From Bacteroidales bacterium (GTDB taxonomy: Bacteria > Bacteroidota > Bacteroidia > Bacteroidales > UBA10428), in the NCBI GenBank assembly GCA_016934055.1, contig JAFGTR010000124.1, positions 2,988-66,987 on the forward strand: 64,000 bases of DNA, written 5' to 3'. The stretch's first letter is position 1. Each line of letters begins with the position of its first letter. Below are positions 41,138 to 49,204 of the stretch, piece by piece. The notes under the pieces were generated by a model. It ran no database searches and was not told the DNA's origin. It saw only the letters and a list, made by a program, of their open reading frames with translations. The position numbers were made by a program, and so were the translations under genes.

Positions 41138-41175
41138 AAATGTCAGACATCCTCACAGGCGTCTGACATTTTTTT
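41138..41175 (+). terminator. intrinsic terminator after rpoD, possibly bidirectional for trpA
   Basis: AAATGTCAGAC (41138-41148) pairs with GTCTGACATTT (41161-41171), and a T run follows. The trpA stop codon (41174-41176, minus strand) lies inside the T run. Confidence 0.75.
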
Positions 41176-41950
41176 ATTTCTTCAAAATCCTGTGGCAGAA
41201 CTTCCTGATCTTTTCCTCCGGGTCACCTACTCCATGCAATGCTTTCACAAAGGCACTCCCAATAATTGCCCCCTGAGCATAACGGCAGGCAACAGAAAAG
41301 GTGTCATGTGAAGAGATACCAAAGCCAATCAGCCTCGGATTTCTTAATTTCATATTATCTATTCGCTCAAAATAATCGATCTGGGCAGTAGAAAAACCTT
41401 TCCTGACACCGGTCGTGGAAGAAGCCGATACCATATATATAAAACCATTGCTTACCTTATCAATAAGACGTATGCGGTTTTCAGCCGTCTGAGGTGAGAT
41501 AAGGAATACAAATTTTAAGTGATATTTTGCAAAAACACTTTTATATTCTTCCAGATACAGGTCCAGCGGCAAATCGGGCAATATAACGCCATCAATACCC
41601 GCTTCGCTGCATCTGAGGCAGAAATTTTCCATGCCAAACTGCATAACAGGATTCAGATAACCCATCATGATCAAAGGAATCGTAACCTCTTTACGCAGGT
41701 CTATAAGCTGTTCAAAAAGCAGATTGAGTGTCATCCCGTTTTTTAATGCCCTGTCACTGCTTTTTTGAATAACAGGACCGTCAGCCATGGGATCGGAAAA
41801 AGGAATACCGATTTCTATCATATCTGCACCTGCTTTAGCCAACGCTTTAATAATAAAAGCTGTTGAATCGAGCAACGGGTAACCTGCTGTACAATAAACT
41901 GACAATATGTTCCCTTGTTTTTGCTGAAAAAGTTTGTTAATACGATTCAT
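41174..41950 (-). CDS. trpA: tryptophan synthase alpha chain
   Basis: 258-aa ORF with IEIGIPFSDPMADGPVIQ and GFGISS motifs. Last gene of the trp operon. Confidence 0.93.
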   Translation of the reverse strand: MNRINKLFQQKQGNILSVYCTAGYPLLDSTAFIIKALAKAGADMIEIGIPFSDPMADGPVIQKSSDRALKNGMTLNLLFEQLIDLRKEVTIPLIMMGYLNPVMQFGMENFCLRCSEAGIDGVILPDLPLDLYLEEYKSVFAKYHLKFVFLISPQTAENRIRLIDKVSNGFIYMVSASSTTGVRKGFSTAQIDYFERIDNMKLRNPRLIGFGISSHDTFSVACRYAQGAIIGSAFVKALHGVGDPEEKIRKFCHRILKK

Positions 41951-41955
41951 TATTA

Positions 41956-42023
41956 TTTGTTGATTTGTTGACCTGCCTGCCGGCAGGCAGGTTTGTTGAT
42001 TTGCTGGCCTGCCTGCCGTCAGG
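41956..42023. repeat. two copies of a 32-nt direct repeat (period 36), the first containing a perfect 22-nt palindrome, in the trpB-trpA spacer
   Basis: TTTGTTGATTTGTTGACCTGCCTGCCGGCAGG (41956-41987) and TTTGTTGATTTGCTGGCCTGCCTGCCGTCAGG (41992-42023) match at 29 of 32 positions. ACCTGCCTGCCGGCAGGCAGGT (41971-41992) is its own reverse complement. Confidence 0.85.
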
Positions 42024-42083
42024 TTGTCAGTCTTATGGTTACAATTCTAAATCCTTCCATCTTCGATCTTCCTTCTTCGATCT

Positions 42084-43274
42084 TTAATCTTTAATTTCCT
42101 CCATATACTTTATATAAGTTGCCATATCTTTATCTCCCCTGCCCGAAAGATTTATGATCACCACATCCTCCGGTTTAAATGTATATTTATCAAGAAATGC
42201 AAGAGCATGAGCCGATTCAAGAGCCGGAATAATGCCTTCGAGTCTGGTCAGCCGATATGCTGCTGTCAGGGCTTCCTCATCGGTAGCATTTTCAAAAACT
42301 GCCCGTCCGATCTTATACAGATATGAATGTATCGGGCCGATTCCAGGATAATCGAGTCCGGCTGATAGTGAATACGGCTCAATGATCTGTCCGTCATCAG
42401 TTTGCATAAGCATGCTTCTGCAACCATGCAGAATACCGGGCCTTCCGGTAACCATTGTGGCAGCAGATTCACCACTGTCAATACCCTTGCCGCCTGCCTC
42501 AACAGCGATCAGTTTAACATCTTCATTATCCAGATAATGATAGAATGCCCCTGCAGCATTGCTTCCACCACCAACACAGGCAATGATATAATCAGGGTTT
42601 TCATTTCCTGTCTGCTCTTTCAACTGCCACCTGATCTCTTCGCTGATGATTGACTGCAGGCGTGTTACCAGATCAGGATATGGATGAGGGCCAACGACTG
42701 ATCCGATGATATAATGTGTATCCACAGGATTGTTGATCCAGTCTCTTATAGCTTCATTTGTAGCATCTTTAAGTGTCATATTGCCACTGTAAACAGGGAC
42801 AACTTCAGCTCCAAGCATTTTCATCCGCAACACATTGGGCGCCTGACGTTCAACATCGAGCTTCCCCATGTAAACAACACATTTTAAACCCATCAACGCA
42901 CATACCGTAGCCGTGGCAACGCCATGCTGTCCTGCACCTGTTTCAGCAATGATCCTTGTTTTTCCCAGCCTGCGTGCAATGATGATCTGTCCGATTGTAT
43001 TGTTGATCTTATGAGCACCTGTATGCGTTAAATCCTCCCTTTTAAGATAGACCTGCGTTTTATAATAGTCTGATAATCTTTTGGCATAATATAATGGTGT
43101 TGGCCGGCCGACATAGTCCTTCAACAACTTTCTGAACTCCTGCTGAAAGTCATTATCCTTTAGTATTGTAAGATAATGATGCTGCAGTTCCCTGACATTC
43201 GGATATAACATTTCGGGAATAAATGCGCCTCCGTATTCACCATAAAAGCCTTTTTTGTTTACCTCATAATTCAT
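42084..43274 (-). CDS. trpB: tryptophan synthase beta chain
   Basis: 396-aa ORF with the PLP-lysine context LKREDLTHTGAHKINN, GAGQHGVATA and GGGSNAAG. Confidence 0.95.
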   Translation of the reverse strand: MNYEVNKKGFYGEYGGAFIPEMLYPNVRELQHHYLTILKDNDFQQEFRKLLKDYVGRPTPLYYAKRLSDYYKTQVYLKREDLTHTGAHKINNTIGQIIIARRLGKTRIIAETGAGQHGVATATVCALMGLKCVVYMGKLDVERQAPNVLRMKMLGAEVVPVYSGNMTLKDATNEAIRDWINNPVDTHYIIGSVVGPHPYPDLVTRLQSIISEEIRWQLKEQTGNENPDYIIACVGGGSNAAGAFYHYLDNEDVKLIAVEAGGKGIDSGESAATMVTGRPGILHGCRSMLMQTDDGQIIEPYSLSAGLDYPGIGPIHSYLYKIGRAVFENATDEEALTAAYRLTRLEGIIPALESAHALAFLDKYTFKPEDVVIINLSGRGDKDMATYIKYMEEIKD

Positions 43275-43277
43275 GAA

Positions 43278-43904
43278 TTATATGTTTTTAATTGTTTTAA
43301 TAAATTCGTTTACCTTAAAAACATCTTTCATACCCGGACTAATCTCAAATCCACTGTTGATATCAACACCAATCAGGGCAGAATGCTTCAGGGCAGTAAT
43401 CTGAGCTGTGTCTTCAGGATTTATGCCTCCACTCAGAAGAAATGGTTTAACGCCACCATAACCCTGCAATATATCCCAATTGAATTTGTCGCCACTGCCC
43501 CCGTACAGTTCTGTTCTGGTATCAAACAGAAAATAATCACAATAGGGCAAAAAAGACTCAGTCATCTGAAAATCAGTTTTCTCATCAACCCTGAAAGATT
43601 TGATAATGCTTATTCTTCTTGACTTTAACGAAGCAACATAGGAAGGATCCTCTTCGCCGTGAAGCTGCACATAATCAAGACCATAACGTTCAACCCGCTT
43701 TAACAGGATTTCCTGATCTTCATTCACAAACACTCCGACTTTATTGATATAAGGTGGCACATGCCGCAACAACCGGGGATCAAAACTATCCCCCACATAA
43801 CGCCGGGACTGAGGATAAAAGATAAAGCCTATGAAATCAGGCTTACAGGCGATTATTTCACGAATGTTTTCACGGTTTTTCAAACCGCATACTTTTACTT
43901 TCAT
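43278..43904 (-). CDS. trpF: phosphoribosylanthranilate isomerase
   Basis: 208-aa ORF starting MKVKVCGL, with DFIGFIFYPQSRRYV and GGSG..F.W. Lies between trpC and trpB. Confidence 0.9.
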   Translation of the reverse strand: MKVKVCGLKNRENIREIIACKPDFIGFIFYPQSRRYVGDSFDPRLLRHVPPYINKVGVFVNEDQEILLKRVERYGLDYVQLHGEEDPSYVASLKSRRISIIKSFRVDEKTDFQMTESFLPYCDYFLFDTRTELYGGSGDKFNWDILQGYGGVKPFLLSGGINPEDTAQITALKHSALIGVDINSGFEISPGMKDVFKVNEFIKTIKNI

Positions 43905-44692
43905 CAGATCTGTATTAGTTTTTTTATAAAAGATGAGAATGCAGTGGCCGGGTCAGGTTCCTGCATGAATTTCTCACCAATCAGAAAACCATTATAACCA
44001 CAAGCTTTCAATTGTTTTATCACCAGGGGTGAATGGATGCCGCTTTCTGTAATTTTCAGGAAATCGTGTGGGATGAGAGGTGCAATTTCAACCGAACGGT
44101 TTGTATCAACTGAAAAATTCCGCAGATCACGGTTATTAATACCAATAACCGCTATTTGTTCATTAACCATCTCAAGTTCAACAGCTTCATGTATTTCCAG
44201 AATGACCTGCAGCTCTATAGAACGGGCCAGAGCCGCCAGTTGCTTTATCCTGGCCTTATCCAGCGCCGCAGCAATTAAAAGAATAACATCGGCTCCCATG
44301 GCCCTGGACTCCTCCACCTGGTACCCGCTGATGATAAAATCCTTTCTCAGAATGGGAATAGGATTGATTTCGCGGGCACGGATCAGGTCTTCATCTGTAC
44401 CACCAAAAAATTCATTGTCGGTGAGGACTGAGAGAGCGGAAGCCCCTGCACGGAAATAACCCGTTGTGACTTCTTCAATGGTTGCCTGATCGTTAATAAT
44501 ACCCTTCGACGGAGATTTCCGTTTAAATTCAGCGATAATTCCGGTACTTTCTTTATCCAGCAGAGCCCTTTCAAGAGAAACCGTCTTCCTCATGTATGCG
44601 GGCTTCTTCCTCAACTGCTCCAGGGGTGTTCTTTCCATCCTTACCGCCAGTTCACGTTTTTTATGTTCTATTATCCTGTCAAGTATTGTCAT
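43904..44692 (-). CDS. trpC: indole-3-glycerol phosphate synthase
   Basis: 262-aa ORF with IIAEFKRKSPSKG, LSVLTD..FF.G and ILRKDFI motifs. Overlaps trpD by 4 nt and trpF by 1 nt. Confidence 0.93.
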   Translation of the reverse strand: MTILDRIIEHKKRELAVRMERTPLEQLRKKPAYMRKTVSLERALLDKESTGIIAEFKRKSPSKGIINDQATIEEVTTGYFRAGASALSVLTDNEFFGGTDEDLIRAREINPIPILRKDFIISGYQVEESRAMGADVILLIAAALDKARIKQLAALARSIELQVILEIHEAVELEMVNEQIAVIGINNRDLRNFSVDTNRSVEIAPLIPHDFLKITESGIHSPLVIKQLKACGYNGFLIGEKFMQEPDPATAFSSFIKKLIQI

Positions 44693-45684
44693 GACTGCAT
44701 TGTAATGAGTTTTTTAAACGTTTCATATGCTTTTCCGCTTTCCAAAGAATGCCTGGCCAGATCAACGCACTCATTTAATGATTTGCCGGGAAAATAACAT
44801 TGCAGGGCCAGTGCGCTGTTTGCAATCACCACCATTTGCTGCGCCCCAGTACCCTTACCCTCAAGAATTTTGCTGAAGATTTCTGCTGCCTTTTCAATGG
44901 TTTCACCATTCTTCAGGTCTGTGTTTCTCACATGACTGAAACCAAGGGCTTCGGGTGAAGCAATCTGTTCAACACCATTGAAAATCACCTTCACATCATC
45001 TGTAAGAGAAACCTCATCATATCCGTCAAGACTGTGCACGATCATAAATTGCTTTCCCGATCGCTGGTAAAGATAATTATATAATCTTGCCAGTTCGAGG
45101 CTAAACACACCTACAAATTGCTTTTGCGGAAAGCTGGGATTAATCATTGGCCCGAGAATATTTATAAATGTTTTGATTTTCAATGCCTTTCTAACAGGCA
45201 CCACGTTTTTCATGGCAGGATTAAAAAGAGGAGCATGCAAAAAACAGACTCCGGTTTTCTCCATTTCACGTTTTAACTTACCGGGATCAGCAGAAAACCT
45301 GTAGCCGAAATATTCCATAATATTCGATGATCCACAGATGGAAGAAACACCGTAATTTCCATGCTTTGCCACCGAAGCGCCGGCGCCCGCTAACACAAAA
45401 GTGGTCAGTGTGGAAATATTAAATGTGTCCTTATTATCCCCGCCGGTTCCGCAAACATCAATTGTATCAAAGTCCGAAAGATCAATTCTGGTGCAAAGGT
45501 TGAGCAATGCATCCCTAAAGCCGCTGAGCTCATCAACGGTTATGCTCCGCATAAGATAGACGGTAAGAAAAGCAGCAATTTCAGCATCGCTGTAATTACC
45601 TTTGGCAATATTGGTCAGCACTTCTTCAGCTTCAGTGCGTGATAGCGTTTTATGCTCGAATAAATAATTCAGAATTTTTCGCAT
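44689..45684 (-). CDS. trpD: anthranilate phosphoribosyltransferase
   Basis: 331-aa ORF with DVCGTGGDNKDTFNIST and KHGN..VSS.CGS motifs. Confidence 0.93.
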   Translation of the reverse strand: MRKILNYLFEHKTLSRTEAEEVLTNIAKGNYSDAEIAAFLTVYLMRSITVDELSGFRDALLNLCTRIDLSDFDTIDVCGTGGDNKDTFNISTLTTFVLAGAGASVAKHGNYGVSSICGSSNIMEYFGYRFSADPGKLKREMEKTGVCFLHAPLFNPAMKNVVPVRKALKIKTFINILGPMINPSFPQKQFVGVFSLELARLYNYLYQRSGKQFMIVHSLDGYDEVSLTDDVKVIFNGVEQIASPEALGFSHVRNTDLKNGETIEKAAEIFSKILEGKGTGAQQMVVIANSALALQCYFPGKSLNECVDLARHSLESGKAYETFKKLITMQS

Positions 45685-45738
45685 GGGTTAATGTATTTAA
45701 AATCGGTTTATTACTGAATTTATAACAGATATGGGATA

Positions 45739-46311
45739 TTAAATATCAAGCCAGTTCTTCATAATGTCGAGACCCCTTTCTGTCAGTACGGATTCCGGAT
45801 GATACTGTACTCCTCTGACATCGTATTGCTTATGGCTTATGCCCATGATGAGTCCTTTATCATCAACACAGGTGACATCAAGGCATTCGGGCAGATTACC
45901 CGGATTGATGATCCAGGAATGATATCGTCCGGCTTCAAACTCCCGCGGTATTCCCTTATATAACAGATCATCGGTTCTGGTAATGTTAACACGACCGGCT
46001 ACACCGTGATAGACCTTGTTTAGATTGATCAGCGAGCCGCCAAATGCCTCTCCAATAGCCTGATGGCCAAGACAAACACCCAGAATGCTTTTAACCGGTG
46101 CGTAATGGCGGATCAGATCGAGACAGATGCCGGCCTCAACCGGAATACCCGGTCCGGGTGACAAAAGGATCTTATCATATTCCGCAACATCTTCAAGCAA
46201 CAGCTCATCATTACGGAAAACTTTCAACGGATCATTTGTAAGCATACCGAGATAATGAACAAGGTTGTATGTAAAAGAATCATAGTTGTCAATGACCAGT
46301 ATTTTTTTCAT
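45739..46311 (-). CDS. trpG: anthranilate synthase component II (glutamine amidotransferase)
   Basis: 190-aa ORF with IDNYDSFTYNL, GVCLGHQAIG (catalytic Cys) and GVQYHPES. Confidence 0.9.
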   Translation of the reverse strand: MKKILVIDNYDSFTYNLVHYLGMLTNDPLKVFRNDELLLEDVAEYDKILLSPGPGIPVEAGICLDLIRHYAPVKSILGVCLGHQAIGEAFGGSLINLNKVYHGVAGRVNITRTDDLLYKGIPREFEAGRYHSWIINPGNLPECLDVTCVDDKGLIMGISHKQYDVRGVQYHPESVLTERGLDIMKNWLDI

Positions 46312-46329
46312 AAGTCTTTTGTTAATGTA

Positions 46330-47733
46330 TTAGCGTATTTCGGTTGCCATTTCAATAGCCTTTTTCAAGGCCCCTAATTTATTATTCACTTCCTGCAGCT
46401 CACTTTCTTCCCTTGACACAGCAACAATACCTGCCCCGGCCTGATAATACAGATGGTTGTTCTTACTCAGGAAAGTCCTTATAAGGATAGCATGATTGAG
46501 GTTGCCGTTGAAGTCGAGAAAACCGATGGCGCCACCGTAAAAGCCACGGAATTGGTTTTCGAACTCATCAATCAATTGCATAGCCTTATACTTCGGTGCG
46601 CCCGAAAGGGTTCCGGCAGGAAAAGTGGCTGTCATCATATCAACCATATCGGCATCTTTATTAAGTTCCCCAGAGACAGTGGAAACCATATGCAGTACAT
46701 GTGAATAATACTGAATTTCGCGGTAGCTGTCAACTTTCACGTTACCCGAATGACGGCTAAGATCATTTCTGGCCAGGTCGACCAGCATAACATGTTCGGC
46801 ATTCTCTTTCAAATCGGTCGATAGTTGCTGAGCCAGCAATTTGTCTTTCTCATCATCGCCGGTTCGTCTGAATGTGCCGGCGATCGGATTTATTATTGCC
46901 CTTCTTTGTTGGATTTTTAGTTGTGCTTCCGGTGAAGAACCAAATATTTTATAATTGCCATAATCAAAGAAAAACAAATAGGGTGAAGGATTAATGGAGC
47001 GCAAAGCCCGGTATACATTAAATTCATCTCCTGAAAAACGCTGTGAGTACTGGCGCGAAAGTACAATCTGGAATACATCACCACGGTAACAATGCTCCTT
47101 TCCGCGGGTTACCATTTTCATATATTCCTCATCGGTGATGTTGGAATGCTCGTCTCCTTCAGGATGAAACGGATAAGATGCAAAGTTCCTGCTTCCAAGC
47201 AGTGATGCAATCTTTTCACACTCACTGAATTCACCATCAAACTGGTTCTCGATGATGTACAACACATTCTGAAAGTGGTTGATTGCAATAATATAGCTGT
47301 AAAAACCATAACAGATCTCCGGAATTTTGCATTCTTCCCTGACAGGGGCCTTTAAAGAAATCTTTTCAAAATAACGAACCGCATCATAGCTTGTATAACC
47401 AAAGAAACCATTGACCGGTATTTTATCTTCCGTTGCTGACGGTTTAAAACAAGACATAAATTCTTTAAACCGTTTTTCAAATGAATCAAGCTGACCCCCG
47501 GACGAAGATCCATCAGGATAAGCAGCTGTATACTCACCTTTGTCAACTATAAAAGTGGCAACGGGTTTAAGGCATATAAAGGAATAGCTATTCTCATTAC
47601 CGTGATAATCAGAGCTTTCCAGTAATATGCTGTTGGGATAAATGTCCCTGATCTTTAGAAAGATACTCACCGGCGTTATTGTATCTGCCAGGAGGCGCTT
47701 TGAGGTTGTTCGGAAGGTAAATGTCTTCATCAT
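46330..47733 (-). CDS. trpE: anthranilate synthase component I
   Basis: 467-aa ORF with the chorismate-binding domain motifs NPSPYLFFF, TFPAGTLSGAPK and GFYGGAIGF. Confidence 0.93.
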   Translation of the reverse strand: MMKTFTFRTTSKRLLADTITPVSIFLKIRDIYPNSILLESSDYHGNENSYSFICLKPVATFIVDKGEYTAAYPDGSSSGGQLDSFEKRFKEFMSCFKPSATEDKIPVNGFFGYTSYDAVRYFEKISLKAPVREECKIPEICYGFYSYIIAINHFQNVLYIIENQFDGEFSECEKIASLLGSRNFASYPFHPEGDEHSNITDEEYMKMVTRGKEHCYRGDVFQIVLSRQYSQRFSGDEFNVYRALRSINPSPYLFFFDYGNYKIFGSSPEAQLKIQQRRAIINPIAGTFRRTGDDEKDKLLAQQLSTDLKENAEHVMLVDLARNDLSRHSGNVKVDSYREIQYYSHVLHMVSTVSGELNKDADMVDMMTATFPAGTLSGAPKYKAMQLIDEFENQFRGFYGGAIGFLDFNGNLNHAILIRTFLSKNNHLYYQAGAGIVAVSREESELQEVNNKLGALKKAIEMATEIR

Positions 47734-47797
47734 TTAGTGTATTTTATAGAGTACTTATATACAGTCCGGTCAAAAGGCTCCTGAAAGCTGAGCCTCA

Positions 47798-47839
47798 TTA
47801 AAAACACAAGCGGCCTACCGTGAGTACGATAGGCCGCTT
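47798..47839 (-). terminator. intrinsic terminator between the trp leader ORF and trpE (candidate attenuator; also the only terminator seen after clpX)
   Basis: Minus strand: AAGCGGCCTA-tcgtactcacgg-TAGGCCGCTT (47839-47808), followed by GTGTTTTTAA (47807-47798). Confidence 0.7.
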
Positions 47840-47869
47840 CTATTTGTATTATACAATAGTGTCAGGGTC

Positions 47870-47929
47870 TCACGGTTTTATGAGAAAACAGCTTAACCAC
47901 CACCACCATGTTGTATAAAATATCTTCAC
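47870..47929 (-). CDS. candidate trp operon leader peptide with four consecutive Trp codons
   Basis: Minus strand: GTG AAG ATA TTT TAT ACA ACA TGG TGG TGG TGG TTA AGC TGT TTT CTC ATA AAA CCG TGA = MKIFYTTWWWWLSCFLIKP. It lies between a consensus promoter and the terminator upstream of trpE. The start codon is GTG, preceded by an A6 run. Confidence 0.55.
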   Translation of the reverse strand: MKIFYTTWWWWLSCFLIKP

Positions 47930-47949
47930 TTTTTTATCTCTTATGCATG

Positions 47950-47980
47950 CAAATATACGCGATGAAATGAAAAAAACAAA
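47950..47980 (-). promoter_or_regulatory. Bacteroidota-type promoter (-33 TTTG / -7 TAnnTTTG) for the trp leader
   Basis: Minus strand: TTTG (47980-47977), a 19-nt spacer, then TATATTTG (47957-47950). The -33 element begins 3 nt after the clpX stop codon. Confidence 0.55.
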
Positions 47981-47983
47981 TAA

Positions 47984-49204
47984 TCAGGCTGCTTTTAATC
48001 TTTGAAGGTTCACTTTTTCAATCTTTGCCCGGGCATAATCTGCTGTAATATTAATTTCGCTTTCATCTCCTGAAGGCAGTTCAAACATAGCATCAATCAT
48101 AATGGCTTCACAAATGGAACGCAATCCACGGGCTCCGAGTTTAAACTCAATGGCTTTATCAACAATATAATTCAGTGATCCTTCCTCAAAGTTCAGCTTT
48201 ATACCGTCGAGCTCAAAAAGTCTGATATACTGTTTGATAATAGCATTTTTTGGTTCTGTAAGAATGCTGCGTAAGGCTTTCCGGTCTAACGGATGCAGAT
48301 AGGTTAACATGGGCAGACGGCCGATTATTTCGGGGATCATCCCATAAGCACGGAGGTCCTGTGGTGCAATATATTGCATGAGGTTATTCCTGTCAATGAT
48401 ATCAGACTTCCGAACAGCATTATACCCAACAACTGTTGTGTTGAGGCGTTGTGCAATTTTTCTTTCAATACCTTCAAAAGCCCCGCCGCAAATAAAGAGT
48501 ATATTGCGGGTATCCACAGGTATCATTTTCTGATCGGGATGTTTGCGGCCTCCCTGAGGCGGCACATTAACAACCGATCCTTCCAGGAGCTTCAGTAAAC
48601 CTTGTTGTACACCTTCTCCTGATACATCACGTGTAATTGAAGGATTATCGCCTTTACGCGCAATTTTATCAATTTCATCAATGAATACAATGCCCTTTTC
48701 AGCTGCTTCAAGGTTATAATCGGCCACCTGAAGCAGACGTGTAAGAATGCTCTCTATATCTTCACCAACATAGCCGGCTTCGGTAAGGACCGTTGCATCC
48801 ACTATGGTAAAAGGCACATGCAGTAACTTGGCTATTGTTCTTGCCAACAGAGTCTTACCTGTACCCGTTTCTCCCACAAGGATAATGTTTGCCTTTTCAA
48901 TCTCAACATCATCTGTGTCTTTCCGGTTGGCCTGCAATAACCGTTTATAATGATTATAAACAGCAACAGAAATGATCTTTTTCGCTTCTTCCTGACCAAT
49001 AACATAAAGATCAAGAAATTTTTTTATCTCCTTTGGCTTAAGCAGCTTAATTGAATTAAGATCAAAAGGATGAGTCTTTTTCAACTCTTCCTGCACTATT
49101 TCATAAGCCTGTTCCACACAGCTGTCGCATATATGTCCCGAAATGCCAGCTATCAGCAGATTGGTCTCCCTCTTGTCACGCCCGCAAAAAGAACATTTGT
49201 CCAT
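47984..49204 (-). CDS. clpX: ATP-dependent Clp protease ATP-binding subunit ClpX
   Basis: 406-aa ORF. N-terminal zinc ribbon CSFCGR...CDSC. Walker A is [11 protein letters not shown] and Walker B is [10 protein letters not shown]. Confidence 0.96.

Follow-up and report, generated by a model that had tools for sequence, protein, structure and literature searches.

The closest described relative of the leader examined here is the Bacteroid-trp motif. It has been described as a leader controlling trpB and trpE, and as 'a loosely conserved hairpin' for which neither a consensus diagram nor an antiterminator is given (Weinberg et al. 2010, Genome Biol 11:R31, PMC2864571, Additional file 1). Later papers contain citations of the motif or transcriptome hints in Flavobacterium psychrophilum (PMC6414381, PMC9723704). 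The transcriptome paper on Bacteroides thetaiotaomicron mentions leader-like small ORFs in generic terms alone (PMC7366714). Since 2010 the case for tryptophan leader attenuation in the Bacteroidota has come from comparative genomics, and a literature search found no experimental test of any member of the family. An earlier note on this DNA had regarded such attenuation as a proposal from comparative genomics with no experimental demonstration in Bacteroidetes. The lack of an experimental demonstration agrees with the literature. One correction is that the leader falls into a family catalogued since 2010, which Rfam lists as 'Bacteroidete tryptophan peptide leader RNA' (RF01692, Bacteroid-trp), and so is not a fresh proposal.

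A second point of comparison is the trpL leader of the proteobacteria (RF00513; E. coli, Yanofsky). Its Trp codons stand in tandem and are included in a 1:2 anti-antiterminator hairpin; its stop codon falls within the antiterminator strand or at the edge of it; and trpE is preceded by an intrinsic terminator. In the Firmicutes, T-box and TRAP attenuators are also premature-termination switches before trp genes, with competing terminator and antiterminator structures. They sense tRNA or act through protein binding.

The locus considered here lies in a stretch of 64,000 nucleotides (the window) from an uncultured Bacteroidales, known from a metagenome-assembled genome (MAG). The nearest relatives of its TrpE likewise come from uncultured Bacteroidales MAGs. 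NCBIfam matches place tig, clpP and clpX upstream of the leader and trpE, trpG, trpD, trpC, trpF, trpB and trpA downstream. On the minus strand, clpX occupies 47984-49204 and ends in a TGA at 47986-47984. The trpE gene occupies 46330-47733 on the same strand, with its ATG at 47733, 64 nt past the end of the terminator tail. The regulated unit would be the trpE-trpG-trpD-trpC-trpF-trpB-trpA operon (41174..47733, minus strand), as given by the NCBIfam matches and the ORF list.

Between clpX and trpEGDCFBA, on the minus strand, lies an attenuator candidate. The four elements that the earlier note had described in it (a promoter, an ORF with a run of Trp codons, a hairpin and an octamer) are all found where it had placed them. 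The 212-nt leader region folds better than each of 200 shuffled versions (z = -4.97). It is very probable, on the evidence of sequence comparison, that this region is a ribosome-mediated transcription attenuator of trpEGDCFBA and a diverged member of the Bacteroid-trp leader family of the Bacteroidota.

Several features are shared with RF01692. The window leader stands directly upstream of tryptophan-biosynthesis genes in a Bacteroidota genome, ahead of trpE; it contains a short ORF with consecutive UGG codons (four here, two or more in the family); and its Trp codons lie in the 5' arm of a hairpin. The RF01692 model aligns over its full length (model positions 1-131) to 47828-47952. The Trp codons are in register, and the 3' end of the model falls at the beginning of the window's terminator hairpin. 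The score is 36.3 bits (E = 0.02), below the gathering score of 49 bits, which is an operational threshold and not a biological feature. At gathering thresholds, Rfam finds only a tRNA in the window. Compared with a typical member of RF01692, the window leader has a GTG start, four Trp codons where three are more usual, and a sub-threshold score.

Low scores are found throughout the genus. One sub-threshold match each, scoring 28-47 bits, is present in 23 of 25 same-genus genomes, the window's own included. Rfam-based annotation therefore misses the whole lineage: none of the 25 genomes reaches the threshold, though 22 are confirmed carriers. The same is true of a set of 41 genomes drawn from the genus and from other families of the order, with the window's own among them, none of which reaches the cut-off; the top score among those checked against leader loci is 48.8. 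A Bacteroides thetaiotaomicron control passed the threshold. Order-wide, 15 of 201 genomes lie above it, the best at 90.7 bits, and scores run continuously from there down to the window's lineage.

Because architecture and context argue for homology, the sub-threshold leader is filed as a diverged member of RF01692. Judged from its sequence, it is a genuine but diverged member of a known family, one that cannot at present be annotated. As regards the genome itself the finding is ordinary, in that it explains the probable regulation of the trp operon. The gain in novelty is modest. It lies in the lineage-wide sub-threshold status and in a covariation-supported scheme of terminator and antiterminator, with the stop codon embedded in the latter, which goes beyond the published description of the motif.

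The leader is preceded by a promoter of the Bacteroides primary-sigma type. Its -33 box, TTTG (47977..47980, minus strand), begins 4 nt past the clpX stop, and its -7 box, TATATTTG (47950..47957, minus strand; consensus TAnnTTTG), follows 19 nt after it. Transcription would start at about 47945-47942, which would give a 5' UTR of about 12-16 nt. As a pattern alone the promoter does not reach significance in the window (4 matches, where 1.85 +/- 1.26 are expected), so the case for it was rested on conservation among genus relatives. Here and below, genus counts on the leader refer to the 22 same-genus loci that could be oriented. A TAnnTTTG box is found 18-24 nt 5' of the leader start in every one of them, and a TTTG stands 18-20 nt from the -7 box in 16 (at 19 nt in 14). 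The Bacteroides-type promoter first recognized by its TTTG, 19-nt spacing and -7 box is thus present, and its -7 box is kept across the genus.

The leader ORF (trpL-like; 47870..47929, minus strand) starts with a GTG at 47929, 20 nt past the -7 box. It has 19 codons, encodes VKIFYTTWWWWLSCFLIKP* and ends in a TGA at 47872-47870. Within it, UGG x4 (47897..47908, minus strand) is the putative site at which scarcity of charged tRNA-Trp would be sensed. The frame containing the Trp (W) run is kept as an ORF of 18-19 codons in all 22 same-genus genomes. Its start codon always lies exactly 7 codons ahead of the W run, and its UGA stop always falls within CCGUGAGAC, in a CCGUGAG context (22/22 for both). 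The peptide follows the pattern M[NK][KR][VI]YT[NT]WWW(W)xxxxLI[KN]P* with fixed geometry in the same 22 genomes. In the genus alignment (A1) the first three Trp codons are invariant columns; residues 12-15 of the peptide vary even within the genus.

Conservation of the W-run frame had been set beforehand as a check on the proposed mini-ORF of four Trp codons and a GTG start, and the relatives confirm that frame and not the one that overlaps it. The overlapping frame, ATG-GTG-GTG-GTG, would encode MVVVVKLFSHKTVRP* (ATG-VVVV). It was rejected because its ATG is absent from the relatives, most of which read AAU UGG.

The start of the leader ORF lies in an A-rich context without a Shine-Dalgarno sequence, as is usual in the Bacteroidota. 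The start codon is ATG in 20 of the 22 genus genomes and GTG in two, the window's and one other. Beside the ATG of these relatives, the window's GTG is a weak start.

A simpler reading of the locus would make the hairpin a mere terminator of clpX and the WWWW ORF a chance frame in the spacer. No separate terminator was found in the interval from clpX to the leader, as the earlier note had cautioned, and this would suit such a reading, as would the GTG start and the promoter pattern that does not stand out in the window. Against it, the ORF, the W run, the stop context and the -7 box are kept in 22/22 genus genomes. The full-length alignment of the RF01692 model also speaks against it. Runs of (TGG)4 or longer occur just 5 times in the whole 4.54-Mb assembly, and the trpE leader is the sole case that combines a short ORF with a terminator after it. 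Furthermore, leaders with W codons and terminators also precede trpE in lineages that have no clpX upstream. This reading is therefore extremely improbable and, as far as sequence conservation can decide, effectively refuted. By the same comparison, the ORF, the -7 box and the terminator recur too consistently in the genus (22/22 genomes) to be due to chance.

The arrangement extends across the phylum. Eighty trpE loci were collected from Bacteroidales, Marinilabiliales, Saprospiraceae, Chitinophagales, Cytophagales and Chryseobacterium. The regions upstream of trpE contain a short ORF with 2-4 consecutive W codons in 78 of them. The remaining two are also W-rich: L036, from a Rikenella-labelled MAG, reads WCWC..W (MKVFFTNWCWCSAWFIKPRE*), and the partial locus L078 has WWW. 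Counting these, a W-rich short ORF precedes trpE in 80/80 Bacteroidota loci. Among the leaders put through the terminator detector, all but two are followed by a terminator hairpin and a T-run.

Terminator and attenuator are one structure in the window (47798..47839, minus strand). The stem occupies 47839-47808 with the loop ACUC, and the tail GUGUUUUUAA follows at 47807-47798. The arms AAGCGGCCUAUCGU and ACGGUAGGCCGCUU form 14 bp with an energy of -23.9 kcal/mol. A hairpin with a U-tract had been described at this place with a 10-bp stem; the hairpin and its U-tract are there, and the stem is 4 bp longer than had been reported. Farther downstream, a second hairpin in the interval between the terminator and trpE is not significant as a structure (z = -0.41), and no counterpart of it was seen in the downstream sequences of relatives.

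RNAalifold finds two elements in the genus alignment A1: the terminator and a hairpin here called P1, a third conserved structure that the earlier note had missed. P1 spans 47850..47917 on the minus strand (-21.4 kcal/mol) and corresponds to an anti-antiterminator. In its outer stem UAUACAA (47917-47911) pairs with UUGUAUA (47856-47850), and in its inner stem UCUCA (47885-47881) pairs with UGAGA (47872-47868). A CC past the stop is the partner of GG in the Trp codons. P1 thus includes the regulatory Trp codons and buries CCGUGAG. According to the cmscan alignment and RNAalifold, it is the hairpin of the RF01692 model, with the Trp codons in its 5' arm.

Both elements are supported by covariation. 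In A1, 98.1% of the cells of P1 and the terminator pair, against 34-48% in slid controls, and 0/500 shuffles score as high. Both partners have changed in four pairs, of which 3 belong to P1. For instance, UAUAC:GUAUA is replaced by GUUC:GAAC in L026. For the terminator, an order-wide alignment (A3) gives 97.2% of cells paired and compensatory changes in 10/12 pairs, again with 0/500 shuffles as high.

The leader accordingly resembles trpL in having a leader ORF with tandem Trp codons, an intrinsic terminator between this ORF and trpE, a 1:2 hairpin that includes the Trp codons, and a stop codon within or at the edge of the antiterminator strand. The resemblance is one of design: RF00513 gives no match at E <= 10, and the window leader has no sequence or covariance-model (CM) similarity to it. 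It also differs from trpL in lacking a Shine-Dalgarno sequence and in having the Bacteroides TTTG/TAnnTTTG promoter. The T-box model (RF00230), which takes in the specifier loop and the T-box antiterminator bulge, has no match at E <= 10 in 47500-48200, and no TRAP-type array of (G/U)AG repeats is seen in the leader. Where T-box and TRAP systems bind tRNA or protein, sensing in the window would be done by a ribosome translating the UGG codons.

A further conserved pairing is the candidate antiterminator. Its 5' strand, ACCGUGAG(AC), occupies 47867..47876 on the minus strand with the stop UGA embedded in it, and its core CGUGAG is invariant in the genus. Its 3' strand, CUCACGGU (47817..47824, minus strand), consists of the terminator loop CUC and the uppermost 5 nt of the 3' arm. 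ACCGUGAG at 47876-47869 is complementary to CUCACGGU at 47824-47817, and the duplex has an energy of -14.2 kcal/mol. The octamer over the stop codon and its complement had been pointed out before; both are present, and the pairing covaries across the order. The caution that the overlap with the terminator arm is small also holds, as the pairing takes up the loop and no more than 5 of 14 positions in the 3' arm. The partner differs from that in trpL, where the antiterminator pairs with the 5' arm of the terminator (2:3) and not with the loop and upper 3' arm.

The core CGUGAG:CUCACG does not covary within the genus, where it is invariant. The genus is thus uninformative on this point, and two order-wide alignments were used. 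In A2 (21 sequences), 78.7% of antiterminator cells pair; shuffles give 72.8 +/- 1.3, and 0/500 are as high. This figure is conservative, because 4 divergent rows are misaligned in the 5' strand and were scored as unpaired. In A3 (31 sequences, including canonical RF01692 members above threshold), 84.2% of cells pair, against 78.1 +/- 1.0 in shuffles (0/500 as high) and 22-54% in slid controls. Changes on both sides occur in 5/9 pairs and 29 cells. The pair types are AU 12 / GC 12, UA 15 / CG 8, GC 29 / AU 2 and GC 18 / AU 3. Two covarying columns are also under the constraint of the terminator stem; the covarying loop column pairs 24:89 and 22:91 are free of it. The covariation in trpE upstream regions of relatives that had been suggested as a check is therefore found for P1, for the terminator and, order-wide, for the antiterminator.

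Different lineages keep the complementarity with different sequences. The window has CCGUGAG:CUCACGG, and UCGUGAA:UUCACGA is a further variant. The highest-scoring canonical RF01692 matches have GUCGUAAG:CUUGCGGC, with the stop UAA, so that above-threshold members in the same order show the same complementarity between stop codon and terminator loop as the window. CCGGGAG:CUCCCGG is found in Marinilabiliaceae and CCGAGUAA:UUACUCGG in Saprospiraceae.

These variants bear on a possible role of the leader peptide itself. A Pro codon before a stop is a slow termination context, and the TnaC peptide uses W12...P24-UGA. The leader peptide ends in Pro-UGA genus-wide. It might be thought, then, that the peptide is a nascent-peptide sensor like TnaC, in which free tryptophan would stall the ribosome at Pro-UGA, mask the antiterminator strand and increase termination. 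Order-wide, however, the last residue becomes Ser exactly where the helix changes from CCG to UCG, the stop lies outside the helix altogether in L118, L133 and L043, and residues 12-15 are variable within the genus. The C-terminal residue thus tracks the RNA helix, which argues for a constraint on the RNA and not on the peptide. Peptide sensing of this kind was rejected on these grounds and is considered very improbable.

Folding energies describe when the antiterminator could form. When the Trp codons are masked by a ribosome and the RNA ends at ...CUCACGGU, the antiterminator closes the minimum-energy structure in 22/22 genus sequences. Once four more bases (GUAGG) are out, the terminator takes over as the structure of lowest energy under every mask. 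The constrained folding of alternative structures that had been recommended thus places the antiterminator lowest in energy throughout the genus, and only transiently. Because the terminator always wins at full length, equilibrium thermodynamics alone cannot explain read-through. Moreover, the antiterminator leaves a 9-10-bp GC-rich lower terminator stem unpaired with the leader, so it would have to act kinetically or by steric conflict.

Two local features of the pairing may be added. In 16/22 genus members, a position that forms C-G in the antiterminator forms a U.G wobble in the terminator. An extension of the antiterminator onto the terminator 5' arm, CCGU:GCGG, pairs in 86% of cells, shows no compensatory changes and is absent in the window.

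The choice of partner can be compared directly by duplex energies. Between the 3' part of the leader and the terminator loop and 3' arm, the best duplex is the proposed pairing in most genus members. Against dinucleotide shuffles its median z in the genus is -2.8 (-2.82), and p <= 0.05 holds for 90%. For the 5' arm, the classical target, the median z is -1.39. In the window itself, z is -0.75 for the 5'-arm duplex and -2.82 for the duplex with the loop and 3' arm.

It is possible that the locus is a real tryptophan attenuator in which ACCGUGAG:CUCACGGU is not a functional antiterminator and the complementarity comes from other constraints. Candidate routes to read-through would then be another helix with the 5' arm, loss of P1 as a pause hairpin, a protein, or Rho. 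The thermodynamic lead of the terminator in all full-length states fits this explanation, as do the small overlap with the 3' arm, at its top alone, the invariant core within the genus, and the better match to the 5' arm in the leaders of Chryseobacterium and of Chitinophagales/Cytophagales. It does not fit the order-wide covariation at the loop positions that are free of the stem (24:89 and 22:91), nor the retention of complementarity in five distinct sequence versions. The position of the stop codon inside the antiterminator strand in 22/22 genus members and the weak 5'-arm duplex of the window also count against it. On balance this explanation is unlikely. That the antiterminator pairing is conserved and covaries across the order is observed; that it would functionally exclude the terminator is inferred.

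With ACCGUGAG:CUCACGGU as the antiterminator, the attenuator would work as follows. Transcription would begin at the TTTG/TAnnTTTG promoter just past clpX, or arrive by read-through from clpX, and the 19-codon leader would be translated while it is being transcribed. When no ribosome is on the leader, the Trp codons and UAUACAA would pair with the region past the stop to form P1. Since P1 buries CCGUGAG, the terminator would then form.

When tryptophan is plentiful, the ribosome would reach the UGA within ACCGUGAG and cover this strand. The 14-bp terminator would fold and transcription would stop before trpE. When charged tRNA-Trp is scarce, the ribosome would stall on UGG x4 and open P1. ACCGUGAG lies outside the footprint of the ribosome, with its start 21 nt from the last Trp codon, and so should stay free during the stall. 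The free ACCGUGAG would pair with the emerging CUCACGGU, the folding of the terminator would be delayed, and the polymerase would enter trpE. In a kinetic route, GUGAG:CUCAC would nucleate while just two apical base pairs of the terminator are possible; alternatively, the antiterminator would act through steric conflict with the lower terminator stem. From the sequence we infer that ribosomes stall on the leader, that the antiterminator wins kinetically and that the operon responds to tryptophan. The classical trpL-type logic that had been read into this locus is supported by the conserved W frame, the -7 box, the terminator and the order-wide covariation.

The leader family may not share one universal design. 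Chryseobacterium and Chitinophagales/Cytophagales show the opposite preference to the genus: the median z is -1.7 and -2.1, respectively, for the 5' arm and -0.7 and +0.3 for the loop and 3' arm. The chances are about even that two designs coexist, with a stop-codon strand that pairs with the loop and upper 3' arm in Bacteroidales and Saprospiraceae (a '2:4'-type pairing, which would need to exist side by side with the lower terminator stem in a strained pseudoknot) and a 5'-arm design in Chryseobacterium and Chitinophagales. If so, one leader family would have evolved two different antiterminator designs. In the non-classical geometry, occupancy of the stop codon by the ribosome would itself be the direct on/off element.

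Trp leaders are nearly universal wherever trpE occurs, both in the genus and throughout the order, against few above-threshold matches to RF01692, the Rfam model of the Bacteroid-trp leader. Of 201 genomes searched across the order, only 15 exceed its gathering threshold, and none of the 25 from the genus does. The sensitivity of RF01692 is low at both ranks, and its seed could be enlarged.

The leaders also occur in more than one form. In the Chryseobacterium trpE loci (L057-L110), the peptide is strongly kept past the Trp run, as WWW[LH]SNSSSGL[KE][LV]LSCC followed by a stop codon. The codons for SSSG contain UCUUCGUCGGG, a mimic of the 5' arm of the terminator that pairs with the entire 3' arm. 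The predicted antiterminator layout in Chryseobacterium differs from that of the window's lineage.

Another variant is found in a metagenome-assembled genome labelled Rikenella microfusus (L036:1200-1360). Its leader peptide, MKVFFTNWCWCSAWFIKPRE and then a stop, has Trp codons that are interspersed rather than consecutive. Despite this, the terminator loop UACUCACG is complementary to CGUGAGUA in the leader.

Some Bacteroidota carry two Trp leaders in tandem upstream of trpE (L017 from genome G028, L037, L039, and L055). The carriers are metagenome-assembled genomes of Prolixibacteraceae, Draconibacterium, and Flammeovirgaceae, together with one further genome of the same order. At the tandem loci whose flanking sequence was inspected, each leader has its own hairpin and T-run.

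Two further features were seen in the window, both on the minus strand. An ATG in the second frame, formed from ACA UGG (47907-47909), opens MVVVVKLFSHKTVRP up to a stop codon and overlaps the leader; it is present in the window only, and is not kept in relatives. A second hairpin, weaker than that of the attenuator, lies between it and trpE at 47772-47796, where GGCUC...GAGCC runs into UUUU. At z = -0.41 its folding is not significant, and nothing equivalent was seen downstream in relatives.

The same interval is longer in a relative of the same genus (L012, genome G011), where at least about 190 extra nt, beginning with CGTGAGACTCAGATATCAGAGGCGGAGCG, separate the terminator from trpE. This extra sequence may be an inserted element.
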